A DNA stretch of 64,000 bases, taken from NCBI GenBank assembly GCA_040377305.1, contig JBEIPA010000006.1, positions 32,001 to 96,000 of the forward strand, read 5' to 3'. The position numbers and the translations under genes are program-made. Under the pieces are notes generated by a model that ran no database searches, was not told where the DNA came from, and saw nothing but the letters and a program-made list of their open reading frames with translations. Position 1 is the stretch's first letter. Each line of letters opens with the position of its first letter. This DNA comes from Flavobacteriales bacterium (GTDB taxonomy: Bacteria; Bacteroidota; Bacteroidia; Palsa-965). Positions 17,671 through 42,952 of the stretch are shown one piece after another.

Positions 17671-17958
17671 ACTTATCTGTAACAGACGGGAGAAAGGAGA
17701 CAGGAGACGGGCGTGCTGAGTGTGGTTAACACAACATTCCATCTTCATCTCAAAACTCCTCTGCGTCTGTAGCAGGAATTGGCACCTTCTTCGCCAGTAG
17801 GCAGTAGTGCAGTCTTGCAGTAGGCAGTCAAAAAGCGAAGCAGGAATTATTCCTGACCACTATTTCTCGACTGCCAACTGCCCTACTGCCCCACTGCCTA
17901 CTGGCACAGGGTTGCCAAGGCATCATCGGGCACGGTCCCTCCGCCTTTCTGGATAAGT
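17671..17958 (-). ncRNA. SAM-I (S-box) riboswitch with expanded P3 and P4
   Basis: Minus strand acttatccagaaaggcggagggaccgtgcccgatgatgccttggcaacc...aaggtgccaattcctgc...agataagt, upstream of metH. Confidence 0.88.
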
Positions 17959-17977
17959 TGTTGGAAAAGAACTGGGG

Positions 17978-35489: not shown

Positions 35490-36266
35490 CTACTGGATAG
35501 TCGCGAGAAACCAAGGATTCCTCAACTGCTCGCGGTTGTAACGCAATTCCGTCTTTTCCGGCCAAACGACCACACTTCCACCTGCAGCAAGTAAAATTGC
35601 ATGCCCGGCAGCAGTATCCCATTCCATAGTTGGTGCGAATCGTGGATACGAGTGTGCTTTCCCTTCTGCCACGAGACAGAATTTCAGCGATGATCCTGAA
35701 GCAGCGAAATCAACTTCGCCATGTTTTGCTTTCATCTCATCGATGTAAGCTTCCGTTTCTGGTGAACTGTGAGAGCGGGAACCGACGATGGTGAATGCTG
35801 GCGGCAGTTCTTGCGCTGGTAATCTTTCTTCTGGCGAATTTCCAGCTACCGATTTACGAATGTATGCTCCCTCGCCCGGAATGGAATAATACAATTCGTC
35901 GCGGGCGGGAACATAAATGACTCCGAAAATAGGTTTCGAATTTTCCACGAGCGCAATGTTGACTGTGAACTCCCCATTCCGTTTGATAAACTCTTTTGTT
36001 CCGTCAAGTGGATCGACCACCCAACACCGCGTCCACGATTTGCGAACAACAAACTCAACCTGCTCATCGCTTTCCTCACTCAATACCGGAATGTTAGTTT
36101 TCTCCAGATATTTCATAATCACTTTCTGTGAAGCAATATCCGCTTTTGTCAAAGGAGAATTGTCACCTTTCATCTCAACACCAAAATCTTCAGTGCTATA
36201 GATTTTCATGATTTCATGTCCGGCTTCGATCGACGCAGCGATTGCAATTTCAACGAGATTCTTCAC
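35490..36266 (-). CDS. cysQ: 3'(2'),5'-bisphosphate nucleotidase
   Basis: SPLTKAD, LSEE, VDPLDGTKEF, GSSLKFC, EWDTAAG. Confidence 0.93.
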   Translation of the reverse strand: MKNLVEIAIAASIEAGHEIMKIYSTEDFGVEMKGDNSPLTKADIASQKVIMKYLEKTNIPVLSEESDEQVEFVVRKSWTRCWVVDPLDGTKEFIKRNGEFTVNIALVENSKPIFGVIYVPARDELYYSIPGEGAYIRKSVAGNSPEERLPAQELPPAFTIVGSRSHSSPETEAYIDEMKAKHGEVDFAASGSSLKFCLVAEGKAHSYPRFAPTMEWDTAAGHAILLAAGGSVVVWPEKTELRYNREQLRNPWFLATIQ

Positions 36267-36269
36267 AGA

Positions 36270-37151
36270 CTAATATTTTGCCCCACCAACTCCGATATTC
36301 TCAATCGGGTGCCAGGTTGTTTTAATTTCCTGCAGATCCATGATCATGTACGGATCCTGACTCGCAGCATTGTTCCAGTTCTTATTCCAATGGAAGAATC
36401 GTTTCACATTCGACACACACGCTTCCTGAGCCGATTTGATTTCTGTTTTATCGTTCGAGCAATACACAAGCGCATTCACGTCCATGTGTGAAGCCATGTG
36501 AGGCAAAAGTTCTTTCGAATTTCCCGTGAGAATATTTATTACGCCACCGGGAAGATCAGATGTGGCCAGCACTTCTCCGAATGTAATCGAACACAACGGC
36601 ATTTTCTCCGAAGCAAGAACGATGCACACATTTCCTCCTGCGATTACGGGAGCAATTACGGAAACCAATCCGATGAGCGAAGAATCCTGCGGAGCTACAA
36701 TAGCTACTACTCCTGTCGCTTCAGGAACAGAAAAGTTGAAGTGAGACGATTGCACCGGATTCACAGAACTGTAAACGGCAGAATACTTGTCACACCAGCC
36801 TGCGTAATACACCATGCGGTCAATGGCGAGCTTCACTTCTTTTTCCGCAATCGCTTTTGTAGTTCCCTGCAAAATCAATTCTTCTACGAATTGTGCAGAA
36901 CGTGTTTCCATCATCTCTGCAATGCGGTAAAGAATCTGACTTCGGTTGTAGCCATTGCGTGCGCTCCATCCGCCAAATGCTCCGCGAGCAGAAACAACGG
37001 CATTACGGAAATCCTTGCGTGATGAAAGACAAATGTTCGCAATCACATTTTTCTTCTTGTCCGTCAATGGATAATAACGCCCTGATTCGGTTCTCGGAAA
37101 TTGTCCGCCGATGTAAAGCTTATACGTCTTGAGAATTTCTATTCTGCTCAT
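36270..37151 (-). CDS. Short aldehyde dehydrogenase-like protein lacking the catalytic domain
   Basis: KLYIGGQFPRTESGR...YYAGWCDK...LPGGVINILTG...EIKTTWHP; no ELGGK and no catalytic-Cys segment. Confidence 0.85.
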   Translation of the reverse strand: MSRIEILKTYKLYIGGQFPRTESGRYYPLTDKKKNVIANICLSSRKDFRNAVVSARGAFGGWSARNGYNRSQILYRIAEMMETRSAQFVEELILQGTTKAIAEKEVKLAIDRMVYYAGWCDKYSAVYSSVNPVQSSHFNFSVPEATGVVAIVAPQDSSLIGLVSVIAPVIAGGNVCIVLASEKMPLCSITFGEVLATSDLPGGVINILTGNSKELLPHMASHMDVNALVYCSNDKTEIKSAQEACVSNVKRFFHWNKNWNNAASQDPYMIMDLQEIKTTWHPIENIGVGGAKY

Positions 37152-37166
37152 ATCGTGATTTTTTTT

Positions 37167-37321
37167 AACCACATAGGATCATAGCCCGTTGTTTTCTTGT
37201 TGGGCGAAAGAATTACATAGTTCACAGGAGAAATATCGCTTAGCGATATTCTCCTGTGAACTATGATCGCGTAGCGCCTTAGCACGCAACGCAATTAACA
37301 TTTCTATGATCCTATGTGGTT
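37167..37321. repeat. Nested 9-nt periodic inverted-repeat element
   Basis: aaccacataggatcatag / ctatgatcctatgtggtt (18-bp perfect); inner catagttcacaggagaa / ttctcctgtgaactatg (37216-37265). Confidence 0.88.
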
Positions 37322-37324
37322 TCA

Positions 37325-38806
37325 TTACATTTTTAAGTATGCTGATAATCCGTGCAAGCCGCCTTCGCGACCGAAACCGCTTTCCTTATAGCCGCCAAAT
37401 GGTGAAGTTGGATCAAACTTGTTATACGTATTTGCCCAGACAACACCAGCGCGTAGTTTATTGGTCATGTTGAAAATGCGAGAACCTTTGTCGGTCCAAA
37501 CTCCGGCTGACAATCCGTAAGGTGTATTGTTCGCCTTCTCAATAACTTCTTCTATCGTACGGAAAGTCTGAATGGCGAGAACCGGCCCGAAAATTTCCTC
37601 CTGAACAATTCGGTGCGACTGTGATGCGTTCAAAAAAAGTGTTGGGCGACAGAAATATCCCTTCGATGGAATTGCGCATGAACTCTGCCACATTTCTGCT
37701 CCGTCTTCTTTTCCAACTTTCAGGTAGTGATTGATTTTGTCGAGCTGTTCCCTGGAATTGATTGCGCCGATGTCGGTATTCTTATCCAATGGATCGCCGA
37801 CAATCAGTGTTTCCATTCTGTCTTTCAGTTTGCGGATAAGTTTTTCCGCAATACCCTCCTGCACGAACAAGCGCGAGCCTGCACAACACACGTGACCTTG
37901 ATTAAAGAAAATTCCGTTGATGATTCCTTCTACGGCCTGATCAAGTGGAGCATCATCGAAAACAATATTCGCTGCTTTTCCACCCAGTTCGAGCGTCAAT
38001 TTCTTTCCGGTTCCGGCTGTTGCTTTCTGAATGAGCTTACCAACATCGGTTGATCCGGTGAACGCAATTTTATTTACATCAGGATGATTCACCAATGCCG
38101 CGCCCGCATCGCCGAAACCATTTACGATATTCACAACACCCGGAGGCAATCCCGAATCACGGATTATTTCCGCAAGCTTCAATGCTGTAAGCGGTGTTGA
38201 TTCCGCAGGCTTTAGTACAACGGTATTTCCGCAAGCAAGTGCCGGTGCAATTTTCCATGCTGCCATGAGCAAAGGAAAATTCCACGGAATAATTTGTCCC
38301 GCTACGCCAAGCGATTCCGGTTTACGATTCGGGAATGCATAGTCGAGCTTATCCGCCCATCCGGCGTAGTAGAAAAAGTGTGCGGCGGCCAACGGCACGT
38401 CAATGTCGCGAGACTCACGGATAGACTTTCCTCCATCCATTGTTTCAATCACCGCGAGCTCACGTGCACGTTCCTGTATCATGCGTGCAATGCGGAACAA
38501 ATATTTCCCGCGCTCGGACGCAGGCATTTTCTTCCACACCTTGTTGTAAGCTCCGCGCGCAGCTTTCACCGCTTTGTCAATGTCTTTCGCGTCACCTTTC
38601 GCAACTTCCGCGAGTGCCTTTTCCGTGGAAGGACTATACGTCGTATAATACTTCCCCGACGATGGAGCAACAAATTCTCCATTGATGAAATGTCCGTACT
38701 TCTTTTCGAGGCGAATGTGGTCGGTGCTTTCCGGAGCGGCTACATATCCCCACTTGTTGAAATCCAATTTCACTTCAACACTCTTCTTTGTCTTTGTACT
38801 CATCAT
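37325..38806 (-). CDS. Aldehyde dehydrogenase
   Basis: IIPWNFP, KPAE, FTGST, LELGGK, FFNQGHVCCAGSR, EEIFGP, PFGGYKESG. Confidence 0.95.
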   Translation of the reverse strand: MMSTKTKKSVEVKLDFNKWGYVAAPESTDHIRLEKKYGHFINGEFVAPSSGKYYTTYSPSTEKALAEVAKGDAKDIDKAVKAARGAYNKVWKKMPASERGKYLFRIARMIQERARELAVIETMDGGKSIRESRDIDVPLAAAHFFYYAGWADKLDYAFPNRKPESLGVAGQIIPWNFPLLMAAWKIAPALACGNTVVLKPAESTPLTALKLAEIIRDSGLPPGVVNIVNGFGDAGAALVNHPDVNKIAFTGSTDVGKLIQKATAGTGKKLTLELGGKAANIVFDDAPLDQAVEGIINGIFFNQGHVCCAGSRLFVQEGIAEKLIRKLKDRMETLIVGDPLDKNTDIGAINSREQLDKINHYLKVGKEDGAEMWQSSCAIPSKGYFCRPTLFLNASQSHRIVQEEIFGPVLAIQTFRTIEEVIEKANNTPYGLSAGVWTDKGSRIFNMTNKLRAGVVWANTYNKFDPTSPFGGYKESGFGREGGLHGLSAYLKM

Positions 38807-39706
38807 TTAATCTTTTGAAAAATATTCCGGTCCCTGATAAATGCCGCTTGCTTCTTTCGCCAGCTGCATCAATATATCGTTCGCTAAACTACTCGCACCA
38901 AAACGGAACCACTGATTGCTCATCCATGCATTCCCAAGTGTTTCATTCACCATTACGAGATAATTCAACGCCGATTTAGCAGTAGAAATTCCTCCGGCAG
39001 GTTTCATTCCGATCATGATTCCGGTTTCGTAATAGTAATCGCGAATTGCTTCGAGCATGACTAATGTCACAGGTTGCGTGGCTGCAGGTTGAATTTTGCC
39101 GGTAGACGTTTTAATGAAGTCCGCACCTGCTCGCATGGCAATTTCACTTGCGCGACGAACATTGTCCAGCGTAGAAAGTTCTCCCGTCTCGAGAATCACT
39201 TTCAATCTGGCAGCACCACAGGCCGCTTTTACTTCAGCGATTTCGTCAAATACGTAATTGTAATTTCCAGCGAGAAATTCTCCGCGGGAAATTACCATGT
39301 CCACTTCGTCTGCACCGTTATCTACTGCGAACTTTGTGTCTTTGATTTTGATATCGCGCGTAGATTGTCCGGAAGGAAATGCAGTTGCAACGGAAGCAAC
39401 TTTCACTCCAGAATTTCCGAGTTCCTTTTTCGCGAGTCCCACGAAAGTCGGATATACGCACACTGCTGCTACAGTTGGTAAACCTTCCAGTTCATCGTGC
39501 GGATGCATGGCCTTGTAACACATCTGCCGCACTTTTCCTGCCGTGTCTTTCCCTTCCAGTGTGGTGAGGTCAATCATGTTCAAGGCAAGTTTTAATCCTT
39601 GCACTTTCGCCGCTTTTTTGATGCTCCGCGTATTCAATCGGGCAACACGTTCTTCGACGCTTACCTGGTCGATGTTGGGGGTGTTCGAAAAGTCCAATTT
39701 ACTCAT
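38807..39706 (-). CDS. deoC: Deoxyribose-phosphate aldolase
   Basis: IDLTTL, GADEVDMVI, LKVILETGEL, GADFIKTSTGK, KPAGGI, RFGASSL. Confidence 0.95.
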   Translation of the reverse strand: MSKLDFSNTPNIDQVSVEERVARLNTRSIKKAAKVQGLKLALNMIDLTTLEGKDTAGKVRQMCYKAMHPHDELEGLPTVAAVCVYPTFVGLAKKELGNSGVKVASVATAFPSGQSTRDIKIKDTKFAVDNGADEVDMVISRGEFLAGNYNYVFDEIAEVKAACGAARLKVILETGELSTLDNVRRASEIAMRAGADFIKTSTGKIQPAATQPVTLVMLEAIRDYYYETGIMIGMKPAGGISTAKSALNYLVMVNETLGNAWMSNQWFRFGASSLANDILMQLAKEASGIYQGPEYFSKD

Positions 39707-39711
39707 CAAAA

Positions 39712-39719
39712 CAAATGTA
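39712..39719 (-). promoter_or_regulatory. -7 promoter box for the deoC operon
   Basis: Minus-strand TACATTTG, 5 nt from the ATG. Confidence 0.65.
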
Positions 39720-39727
39720 CGGTTTCA

Positions 39728-39834
39728 AGGGATTGGGGTATTGGGGGATTAGGGGATTTAGGCGTATGAACGCATCGCCTACTCCTTGTAGCCCAAATTC
39801 CCCAACTCCTTAATCCCCTAATCCCCTAATCCCT
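39728..39834. repeat. 8-nt periodic inverted-repeat element between divergent promoters
   Basis: agggattggggtattgggggattagggga ... taatcccctaatcccctaatccct. Confidence 0.85.
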
Positions 39835-39842
39835 ATTTTTAT

Positions 39843-39850
39843 TACATTTG
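39843..39850 (+). promoter_or_regulatory. -7 promoter box for leader-cysCDN
   Basis: TACATTTG, 11 nt upstream of the leader ATG. Confidence 0.7.
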
Positions 39851-39861
39851 TGCCCACAGCA

Positions 39862-39933
39862 ATGAAAAACAATTCCGCTATCTATAAATCACTTCTCAAG
39901 ACCATGTCTTGCTGTATGTGTATTTCCCGGTAA
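39862..39933 (+). CDS. Putative Cys/Met-rich leader peptide MKNNSAIYKSLLKTMSCCMCISR
   Basis: 23-codon uORF with ATG TCT TGC TGT ATG TGT, between a promoter box and a terminator-like hairpin upstream of cysC. Confidence 0.75.
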   Translation: MKNNSAIYKSLLKTMSCCMCISR

Positions 39934-39967
39934 GAAAGACTGAATTGCTGTTTAATTTTTTCAGAGG

Positions 39968-40005
39968 AGGTCTTTCAGGTAACAGAGAAAGGCCTTTTGT
40001 ATTTT
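39968..40005 (+). terminator. Attenuator-type terminator hairpin upstream of cysC
   Basis: aggtctttc (39968-39976) pairs with gaaaggcct (39987-39995), followed by tttgtatttt; gaaagac (39934-39940) competes for the 5-prime arm. Confidence 0.65.
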
Positions 40006-40605
40006 ATGTCGCACAACGAAAATATACATCCAACATTTGAACGATTTCTTCGTCGGGAAGACCGGGAAGATATGCTCGGTCAGCACGCGAAAGTAATTTG
40101 GCTAACAGGCTTGTCCGGTTCAGGAAAAACTACGCTTGCCATTGCGCTTGAACAGCAATTGTCCGACGAAGGCAAACTGGTCTACGTACTGGATGGAGAT
40201 AACGTTCGTACAGGAATCAACAGCAATCTCGGATTTTCTGAAGAAGACCGGAAAGAAAATGTACGGCGCATTGCGGAAGTGGCGAAGCTTTTTGCTGATG
40301 CAGGTGTAATTACGATCTGCTGTTTTGTGAGTCCGACCATTGAAATCCGGGAACTCGCGAAAAAAATTATCGGTGAACAGGACTTTCTTGAAGTGTATGT
40401 AAATGCTTCGTTGGAGTCGTGCGAAAAACGTGATGTGAAAGGATTGTATGCAAAGGCGAGAAGTGGCGAACTGAAAGATTTCACTGGAATTCATCAACCG
40501 TTTGAAGCCCCGCTTAACCCTTGGATGGAAATCAAAACAGACACTCAAACTTTAGAGGAGTCTATAGCACAACTTACCGAAGCTGTTCAGAATAGAACTT
40601 ATTGA
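40006..40605 (+). CDS. cysC: Adenylyl-sulfate kinase
   Basis: WLTGLSGSGKTT, LDGDNVR, RDVKGLY, FTGI. Confidence 0.95.
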   Translation: MSHNENIHPTFERFLRREDREDMLGQHAKVIWLTGLSGSGKTTLAIALEQQLSDEGKLVYVLDGDNVRTGINSNLGFSEEDRKENVRRIAEVAKLFADAGVITICCFVSPTIEIRELAKKIIGEQDFLEVYVNASLESCEKRDVKGLYAKARSGELKDFTGIHQPFEAPLNPWMEIKTDTQTLEESIAQLTEAVQNRTY

Positions 40606-40666: not shown

Positions 40667-41578
40667 ATGAGTAAAAATTATACACTTAAACATTTACAGG
40701 AGCTCGAATCGGAATCGATTTACGTATTGCGCGAAGTAGCTGCGCAATTTGAGAATCCTGCGTTGCTGTTCTCCGGTGGAAAAGATTCCATCGTGGTGAG
40801 CCACCTGGCACGAAAGGCTTTTGCTCCGGCGAAAATTCCCTTTCCGCTTATGCACATTGATACGGGACATAATTTCCCGGAAACCTTGGAGTATCGCGAC
40901 TGGTGGGCGAATGAAATTGGAGCGAAGTCCATCATTAAATATGTGCAGGATTCTATAGACAAGGGGCGCGCAACGGAAGAGAAAGGAATCAACGCAAGTC
41001 GTAACGTTTTGCAGACGGTAACTCTTCTCGACGCGATTGAAGAACTGAAACTCGATTGTTGCATCGGTGGTGCACGCCGCGATGAAGAGAAAGCACGGGC
41101 GAAAGAACGGTTCTTCTCTCACCGCGATGAATTCGGTCAGTGGGATCCGAAGAACCAGCGTCCGGAATTATGGAACCTGTTCAACGGCAGAAAAAATGTA
41201 GGCGAACACTTCCGCGTATTCCCGATTTCAAACTGGACGGAGATGGATGTGTGGCAATATATCCTCGCAGAAAATATTCCGCTTCCGAAAATCTACTTCT
41301 CGCACAAGCGTAAAGTTTTTATGCGTGATGGGCAATGGCTGGCTGGTGATTTCGATTTTCTCGCGAAGAAACCGACAGAAGTGGTAGAAGAGAAAATTAT
41401 CCGCTTCCGTACGATTGGCGATATTACATGTACGGGTGCAGTAGAATCAACAGCATCAACGCTCGAGGAAATAGTGCAGGAAGTTGCAGCGTCACGCACA
41501 ACCGAACGCGGAACACGTGCTGATGATAAACGTAGCGAAGCTGCAATGGAAGATCGTAAGAAACAAGGCTATTTTTAA
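40667..41578 (+). CDS. cysD: Sulfate adenylyltransferase subunit 2
   Basis: FSGGKDS, GGARRDEEKARAKER, RFRTIGD, MEDRKKQGYF. Confidence 0.96.
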   Translation: MSKNYTLKHLQELESESIYVLREVAAQFENPALLFSGGKDSIVVSHLARKAFAPAKIPFPLMHIDTGHNFPETLEYRDWWANEIGAKSIIKYVQDSIDKGRATEEKGINASRNVLQTVTLLDAIEELKLDCCIGGARRDEEKARAKERFFSHRDEFGQWDPKNQRPELWNLFNGRKNVGEHFRVFPISNWTEMDVWQYILAENIPLPKIYFSHKRKVFMRDGQWLAGDFDFLAKKPTEVVEEKIIRFRTIGDITCTGAVESTASTLEEIVQEVAASRTTERGTRADDKRSEAAMEDRKKQGYF

Positions 41579-41698
41579 GTTCGGAGATAGGAGTTGGGAG
41601 ACGGGAGTAAAATTCCGCTACAATTTCACAACTGAACACAACATACAATTAGTGATATGAGTAATACTACACACCCGGCTCCGAACTCCGAACTCCAA
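41578..41698. repeat. 7-nt periodic hairpin straddling the cysN start
   Basis: agttcggagataggagttgggagacgggag (41578-41608) versus cccggctccgaactccgaactcc (41674-41696). Confidence 0.75.
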
Positions 41699-42952
41699 TC
41701 TTATTTAGACATGGATCTCTTGCGGTTTACCACTGCAGGAAGTGTTGATGACGGAAAATCAACTTTGATCGGACGACTGCTATACGATTCGAAATCGATC
41801 TTCGAAGATCAGTACGAAGCAGTAAAAGCTTCGAGCGAAAAACGTGGCGAAGAATATGTGAACCTCGCACTTCTTACCGACGGATTGCGTGCAGAACGCG
41901 AGCAAGGAATTACGATTGATGTTGCATACCGGTATTTTGCAACACCAAAACGTAAATTCATCATTGCAGATACCCCTGGACATATTCAGTACACACGTAA
42001 CATGGTGACGGGCGCTTCCACAGCAAATCTTGCAATCATTCTCATTGATGCGCGCAAAGGTGTGATTGAACAAACCATGCGTCACACGTTCATCGCTTCC
42101 TTGTTGCGCATTCCGCACATTGTTGTTTGCGTGAACAAAATGGATTTGGTCGAGTATAAAGAAGAGGTCTACAACTCCATCAGGAAAGATTACCAGGCTT
42201 TTGCATCGAAACTGGATTCAATCGACATTCACTTCCTGCCAATTTCTGCCCTGAACGGAGACAACGTTGTTGATCGCTCAGACAAGATGCCGTGGTATGA
42301 AGGTTCTACCCTGCTCTATCTGCTGGAGAATATTCACATTGCATCCGACCACAATCACATCGATTGCCGCTTTCCGGTACAATATGTAATTCGCCCAATG
42401 AGTAACGAACATCACGACTATCGCGGATTCGCTGGTCGTGTTGCAGGTGGTATTTTCAAGACAGGCGATAAAGTCACTGTGCTTCCTTCCGGATTTCAAT
42501 CGAAAGTAAAGTCAATTGACACGTTTTCCGGACCCATCGAAGAAGCATTTGCACCAATGAGTGTGACACTTACACTTGAAGATGAAATTGATATTTCCAG
42601 AGGTGATATGATCGTGCGGGAGAATAATCAGCCGCATGTTTCTCAGGATCTGGATGCAATGATCTGCTGGTTCCATTCAAAACCGCTTCAGGCAAACAGC
42701 AAGTTTGTAATTCGTCATACTTCCCGGGAAGCACGTTGCATGGTGAAAGAAATTCAGTACAAAGTCGACATCAACACACTTCATCGTCTGGAGGATGATA
42801 AAAACATACAGATGAATGATATTGCGAGAATCAGGATTCGCACTACAATTCCGTTGCTGTTCGATAGTTATTCGCGCAACAGAAATACCGGGGGAATAAT
42901 TTTGGTTGATGAAGCAACGAATGAAACGGTGGCGGCTGGAATGATTGTCTAA
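41657..42952 (+). CDS. cysN: Sulfate adenylyltransferase subunit 1 (GTPase)
   Basis: GSVDDGKST, EQGITIDVAYRYF, DTPGH, NKMD. Confidence 0.96.
   Translation: MSNTTHPAPNSELQSYLDMDLLRFTTAGSVDDGKSTLIGRLLYDSKSIFEDQYEAVKASSEKRGEEYVNLALLTDGLRAEREQGITIDVAYRYFATPKRKFIIADTPGHIQYTRNMVTGASTANLAIILIDARKGVIEQTMRHTFIASLLRIPHIVVCVNKMDLVEYKEEVYNSIRKDYQAFASKLDSIDIHFLPISALNGDNVVDRSDKMPWYEGSTLLYLLENIHIASDHNHIDCRFPVQYVIRPMSNEHHDYRGFAGRVAGGIFKTGDKVTVLPSGFQSKVKSIDTFSGPIEEAFAPMSVTLTLEDEIDISRGDMIVRENNQPHVSQDLDAMICWFHSKPLQANSKFVIRHTSREARCMVKEIQYKVDINTLHRLEDDKNIQMNDIARIRIRTTIPLLFDSYSRNRNTGGIILVDEATNETVAAGMIV

Follow-up and report, generated by a model that had tools for sequence, protein, structure and literature searches.

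The trpL, hisL and thrL leaders of E. coli are leader-peptide transcription attenuators, and that of thrL senses two amino acids. Is there anything similar for sulfur in Bacteroidota, whose regulation of sulfate assimilation is, to our knowledge, poorly described? One counterpart is uORFC-8-2, a motif predicted 5′ of cysS in Rhodobacterales (PMC8632094). In mycobacteria the polycysteine leaderless sORF Ms5788A hides a Shine-Dalgarno site and transcription termination was excluded (10.1101/834739), translational polycysteine attenuation in that group being also the subject of PMC13236596, and Cys leaders without a terminator have been predicted in Actinobacteria (PMC1262725). A 2020 preprint gives Cys uORF attenuation as undescribed before its own translational case. 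Within Bacteroidota, leader-peptide attenuation is predicted for ilvE, hisG and pheA of Flavobacterium psychrophilum, i.e., for other amino acids, and cys is absent from the five ‘leader peptide’ places in the table of that work (PMC9723704). No Bacteroidota Cys leader was found in PMC7366714, PMC13613805, PMC6429828 or PMC11109978, whose supplements might list one, and literature searches gave none for Bacteroidota or for cysC; broad attenuator surveys could contain Bacteroidetes Cys predictions.

What, then, lies before the sulfate activation genes in the window, that is, the whole stretch of 64,000 nucleotides that was analysed? In its coordinates the features are:

39843-39850, plus strand: −7 box of Bacteroidota sigma-A (TAnnTTTG), TACATTTG, seen in the sequence.
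39856-39863, plus strand: possible, and uncertain, 5′-end strand pairing with 39944-39951 in the untranslated leader (full-length MFE and centroid folds).
39862-39933, plus strand: leader ORF of 23 aa with a Cys/Met cluster near its C-terminus (ATG at 39862, TAA at 39931-39933).
39904-39921, plus strand: putative sensor codons 15-20, Met15-Ser-Cys17-Cys18-Met19-Cys20 (MSCCMC), from the sequence and ribosome-mask folding.
39934-39941, plus strand: segment 2, the antiterminator strand, adjoining the uORF stop; 8-bp helix with 39969-39976, −7.9 kcal/mol.
39965-39976, plus strand: segment 3, shared, being both the terminator 5′ arm and the partner of segment 2 (folding).
39987-39998, plus strand: segment 4, the terminator 3′ arm; 12-bp hairpin with a 10-nt loop, −13.8 kcal/mol.
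39995-40005, plus strand: U tract with interruptions, running up to the cysC start; the RNA 3′ end is predicted here (sequence).
40006-40605, plus strand: cysC, adenylyl-sulfate kinase (TIGR00455, 238 bits against a cut-off of 138.7).
40667-41578, plus strand: cysD, sulfate adenylyltransferase small subunit (TIGR02039, 424 bits, cut-off 396.6).
41657-42952, plus strand: cysN, sulfate adenylyltransferase large subunit (TIGR02034, 574 bits, cut-off 336.1).

The −7 box, the 23-aa uORF, its MSCCMC cluster and the cysC ATG at 40006 had been placed by a first-pass annotation, and all their coordinates check, as does the complementarity it saw between gaaagac (39934-39940) and gtctttc (39970-39976); the hairpin it described, with a U-rich tract ending at the cysC ATG, does fold, at the energy given above. 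Because the −7 box is placed at −12 to −5 (PMC9723704), the transcript is predicted to start at ~39855, 7 nt 5′ of the uORF. The box lies 5-16 nt 5′ of the uORF ATG in 19 of the 23 homologous cysC leaders introduced below, which for such predicted starts implies a 5′ UTR of ~1-12 nt. Profile searches with NCBIfam and Pfam gave no match to the leader ORF, Rfam covariance models gave nothing at gathering score, nor at E ≤ 5 for 39750-40050, and a consensus promoter/terminator scan, built on a sigma-70 pattern and with a loop limit of 8 against the 10-nt loop here, made no plus-strand call, the cysC hairpin included. The whole leader is no stabler than shuffled sequences (z −0.73). Short intergenic ORFs with at least 3 Cys in 6 residues number 40/5012 in the own genome, and a terminator of −9 kcal/mol or below follows only 2 of the 40, both 5′ of sulfur operons. 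As to the surroundings, deoC is divergent from cysC, and the two are back-to-back in many relatives; the minus strand carries deoC, an aldehyde dehydrogenase gene, a short ALDH-like gene and cysQ (35490-39709), and between deoC and the cysC promoter is a long inverted repeat, imperfect and built of G-rich/C-rich units of 7-8 nt (39718-39834), in place of which the closest relative (L002) has other sequence.

The Cys/Met leader ORF with its competing hairpins is very probably a ribosome-mediated transcription attenuator of cysC-cysD-cysN, the likely trigger being predicted to be scarce charged tRNA-Cys, and possibly tRNA-Met. The attribution is made because the uORF and its Cys cluster are conserved, as are both pairings, 2:3 and 3:4, with their register to the ribosome, and because such leaders recur before many different sulfur genes. 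RNA polymerase would start at ~39855 with a ribosome close behind. A ribosome stalled anywhere from Met15 to Cys20 would leave segment 2 free to capture segment 3 as it emerges, the terminator would then be too late to form, and cysC-cysD-cysN would be transcribed; a ribosome reaching Ser22 to the stop would cover segment 2, so allowing the 3:4 hairpin and termination in the U tract before cysC. 

The first-pass proposal that stalling at Cys codons frees segment 2, while a ribosome at the stop masks it, agrees with folding in which the nascent RNA was cut before segment 4 and the ribosome was assumed to mask everything as far as 12 nt 3′ of the first A-site base, PMC4833913 giving coverage that reaches at most 12 nt beyond the stop. 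In this model the probability of 2:3 pairing in the own leader is 0.98-1.00 at Met15 to Cys20, 0.81 at Ile21, and 0.00 at Ser22, Arg23 and the stop, i.e., with footprints masked the flip comes between Cys20 and Ser22. Among the 23 cysC leaders it exceeds 0.5 at the last Cys in 20 and at the stop in just one. In full-length RNA the terminator forms under every ribosome mask (P 0.99 at equilibrium), and since it wins there the switch must be kinetic and co-transcriptional. With no ribosome, 2:3 is still favoured at equilibrium in 17/23, and in 14/23 segment 2 is partly paired upstream before segment 3 emerges. Since the His leader behaves in the same way (0.97), a default-ON state in the absence of a ribosome was no longer taken as a particular match to Met sensing, an idea also weakened in that 5′-end helices could form first. 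The genome has a His-rich leader with a terminator 5′ of hisG-hisD (G000:C17 118828-118772, minus strand; L049).

How does this compare with the classical leaders? As in trpL, hisL and thrL there is a short ORF rich in codons for the end product (across the 23 cysC leaders 19.4% Cys and 11.8% internal Met, against backgrounds of ~1.2% and ~2.2%), an intrinsic terminator 5′ of a biosynthetic operon (here one with a U-rich tract but without a call by the strict scan), and an antiterminator that excludes it and, as computed with the assumed 12-nt mask, is exposed by a stall on the sensor codons. Unlike them, the cysC leader would sense Cys/Met, its segment 2 is after the stop and so masked directly, its predicted start is nearly leaderless, and no 1:2 helix over the sensor codons is conserved. 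On this last point the trp/his-type layout of 1:2, 2:3 and 3:4 pairing first proposed did not survive whole: 2:3 and 3:4 are conserved and fold, whereas the 5-bp gtctt/aagac pairing within the Met-Ser-Cys codons exists but is matched by 53/100 shuffles, which is chance level, and its position is not conserved, so that a segment 1 inside these codons was rejected. An upstream partner of segment 2 beats shuffles in only 2/23 cysC leaders, the 5′-end helix is the best such partner in only 7/23, and where a 1:2 helix is present, in the first of the tandem leaders of sulfite reductase (sir) operons considered below, it is at codons 3-5. The cysC leader would thus work like trp/his in a variant layout without the 1:2 feature. 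With uORFC-8-2 it shares a uORF with tandem Cys codons, a U-tailed terminator and read-through on low Cys-tRNA, predicted in both cases; that motif differs in being from Alphaproteobacteria, before cysS only, and with two stems of which the first holds its Cys codons, and its description mentions no Met cluster, which by description sets the cysC leader apart (PMC8632094). Cys runs near the end of a 5′-proximal sORF and a sulfur-gene regulon are common to it and the mycobacterial cases (10.1101/834739, PMC1262725); unlike those sORFs, which have no terminator hairpins, the cysC leader has a segment 3 that pairs with 2 or 4, and in the folds its Cys codons do not pair with the cysC start region.

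For the conservation, cysC is present in 46 of 61 genomes and 500 nt upstream of it was inspected in all 46; Cys leaders heading operons with an internal cysC would escape such a count. A Cys-cluster ORF with a terminator is there in 25/46, that is, in 24 of 32 genomes of the same family (own included; 8 are without) and in one of 14 outside it, the unpublished genome G012 (L015) being included in both 25/46 and 24/32 and related genomes not being independent samples. Besides that one, the 23-leader set leaves out L054, L078 (which is weak) and, in L035, an ORF that overlaps. Its members are 19-26 aa long and keep the start codon, the Cys/Met cluster and the frame, while the other residues drift, the Cys codons are mixed (TGC 56, TGT 43) and the stops vary (TGA 15, TAG 5, TAA 3). 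The segment 3 core, GTCTTTC(C), is nearly invariant, and, counted from the stop codon’s first base, segment 2 begins at 2-12 nt in 20/23. Across the cysC leaders 2:3 pairing is kept in 88.6% of 184 cells with the MAFFT alignment at slide +1, a one-column slip (72.3% are paired unslid). The recurrence of the Cys uORF that had been sought in relatives is thus found, but within the cysC leaders alone 2:3 is conserved with no excess of covariation (341 vs 339). Over 55 distinct leaders of all types the picture is different: the terminator has compensatory changes, on both sides, at 6/8 consensus pairs, and a leader’s own segment 3 pairs with its segment 2 better than foreign ones do (752 vs 603 ± 22; 0/5000 permutations), as is so inside both sir leader types (6/5000 and 17/5000), these permutation tests being inflated by relatedness among leaders. 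Segment 2 has two geometries, post-stop (+2 to +12) or intra-ORF (−16 to −27), but lies 9-33 nt 3′ of the last CC pair in every case. In one relative (L003:1500-1920) a short ORF, presumably for a GxxExxY-type protein, which it resembles, is inserted 3′ of cysD.

The only other Cys leader with a terminator in the genome is paralogous:

G000:C50 23451-23356, minus strand: paralogous Cys/Met leader.
G000:C50 23451-23175 (L048:15452-15176), minus strand: that leader with its terminator region (sequence).

The terminator is followed by tRNA-Cys(GCA) and then by sulfite reductase, cobA, a peroxiredoxin gene, two DUF2490 genes, cysG-TauE, cysH and hom. The tRNA-Cys is an extra, diverged one, another being elsewhere in the genome. 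Matches to sir were found in 32/61 genomes; among the best 30 sir loci, one of them G012, a Cys leader with a terminator is within 1450 nt in 26, and in 18 there are two in tandem. Salmonella mgtCBR is a known case of attenuators in tandem (PMC3641672); the tandem leaders and the tRNA gene of the paralogous operon set it further apart from trpL, hisL and thrL. The first leader of the sir tandem has the geometry of the cysC leader; in the second the antiterminator strand is inside the ORF, at medians of 19 nt before the stop codon and 17 nt 3′ of the last CC pair (12/22 scored). Only the second is retained in the own genome and its nearest relatives, and at the paralogous locus there is a stub hairpin where relatives have the first; under the mask the own genome’s leader of this second type, B, stays unflipped at the last Cys (0.15 vs 0.51). 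No Cys leader was found further 5′ of sir in G038, G037, G045 or G035. A tRNA-Cys is inside the operon in 7/30 sir loci, and a tRNA pattern search gave two more second copies (G020, G023), both directly 3′ of a Cys-leader terminator. The paralogous leader would control the second half of the pathway, with its extra tRNA-Cys, sulfite reductase, siroheme genes, cysH and hom, and the two leaders would make a two-operon regulon for which a protein regulator is not needed.

How widespread are such leaders? A strict pattern applied to 401 genomes of the phylum gave one match, not a leader, and missed both of the own genome’s leaders, and is thus uninformative on breadth. A contig pattern scan that used neither segment 2 nor reading frame matched 73 loci, 57 of them with an in-frame short ORF, of which 50 are 5′ of a sulfur gene or operon; where the in-frame uORF is missing, a sulfur gene is 3′ in just 1/16. 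The targets of the 50 are a sulfhydrylase-type PLP enzyme (20), cysC (13), sir (9), a peroxiredoxin or aldo-keto reductase followed by sir (5) and a cysK-type gene (3). By record title the carriers are Bacteroidia, Flavobacteriales, Sphingobacteriaceae, Lentimicrobiaceae, Ignavibacteria and Calditrichia, all titled MAGs, and part of the matches are the same loci as in the relatives. All 20 sulfhydrylase loci were scanned for a SAM-I riboswitch and 17 have it 3′ of the Cys leader (L080, L083, L084, L091, L094, L097, L099, L102, L104, L107, L108, L126, L131, L134, L138, L139 and L141; titles Ignavibacteria, Calditrichia and Bacteroidetes). The sole clear target outside sulfur pathways is a 2-oxoacid:ferredoxin oxidoreductase, behind a convincing Cys leader and terminator (L149:1-900, minus strand), and 5′ of leuA there is a leader rich in Ile/Leu whose last residues are Cys-Cys-Met and whose terminator is of the same style (L136:1930-2130, plus strand).

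Is it really Cys and Met that are sensed? To the alternative that Cys alone is sensed, the Met codons having come from slippage in TG-rich sequence, or that PAPS is made mainly for sulfotransferases and general sulfur status is read, we give appreciable but minority weight; what is at issue there is which signal is read and to what end, rather than the switch itself. The Met-Cys codon runs are hexamer repeats, sulfotransferase-family genes in the genome could draw on PAPS, and what reads like the methionine synthase gene metH, a 1262-aa ORF, has its own SAM-I riboswitch (Rfam RF00162; window 17754-17959, minus strand). The 32 family genomes divide into 19 with leader and sulfite reductase, 5 with the leader only, 2 with the reductase only and 6 with neither, and of the five that retain the leader and lack a sir match, two have a completeness of 97-99%. 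Against this, the leader is in 19/21 family genomes with both sir and cysC vs 5/11 without sir, and in 23/23 cysC leaders an internal Met is at most 2 residues from a Cys. Moreover, the genome has MetX-, MetZ-, cystathionine beta-synthase-, cystathionine lyase/synthase- and cysK-like genes, several below family cut-offs, its profile search gave no cysE over the cut-off, and hom is the last gene of the sir operon, all of which is suggestive of a homocysteine route, through which sulfide may enter to supply both Cys and Met. In L020 and L028, with no sulfite reductase match, a terminator-like hairpin remnant is 5′ of cysC and the Cys leader is lost.

Might the 3:4 hairpin instead, or in addition, hide the cysC initiation region, so that attenuation is of translation? 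We consider this improbable. The hairpin does end ~8 nt 5′ of the cysC start, a distance of 4-14 nt in 16/23 leaders, the U tract is interrupted and, as noted, the terminator scan passed the hairpin over, and the mycobacterial leaders of the Ms5788A kind act on translation (10.1101/834739). However, the U tract is retained in homologues whose cysC starts anywhere from 4 to 80 nt 3′ of the hairpin, in 4/23 of them as far as 62-80 nt, and elements for which start-site masking would be of little relevance, namely a tRNA gene, which directly 3′ of a terminator is controllable at transcription only, a second leader or a SAM riboswitch, are what follows the paralogous leaders; these favour termination. 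Less probable still is that the leader peptide, binding metal or thiol, or a short RNA is itself the product, with the hairpin a plain terminator and cysC expressed by leak or from another promoter: Cys-Cys-Met-Cys could perhaps bind metals, and the terminator does dominate at equilibrium, but clustering of Cys/Met is all that is kept of the peptide, segment 2 follows segment 3 from one leader type to another, in the window the stretch from hairpin to cysC is too short for another −7 box, and the leaders are almost exclusively 5′ of sulfur genes.

With attenuation of transcription by the Cys/Met leader the preferred reading, what the first-pass annotation observed is confirmed and its interpretation largely supported. 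Beyond the single locus, we would propose only tentatively, with about as much doubt as trust and slightly more of the former, that sulfur assimilation in Bacteroidota, Ignavibacteria and Calditrichia is an RNA-only regulon of dual Cys/Met attenuators, single 5′ of cysC-cysD-cysN, doubled 5′ of sulfite reductase and in series with SAM-I 5′ of sulfhydrylase, with some lineages releasing an extra tRNA-Cys. If that is true, a switch with a tRNA-Cys gene behind it would boost the very tRNA that it senses. A terminator-type Cys/Met attenuator on sulfate activation would be the classical counterpart to the translational Cys case, and the leader signature could serve to locate sulfur-regulated genes in uncultured lineages.
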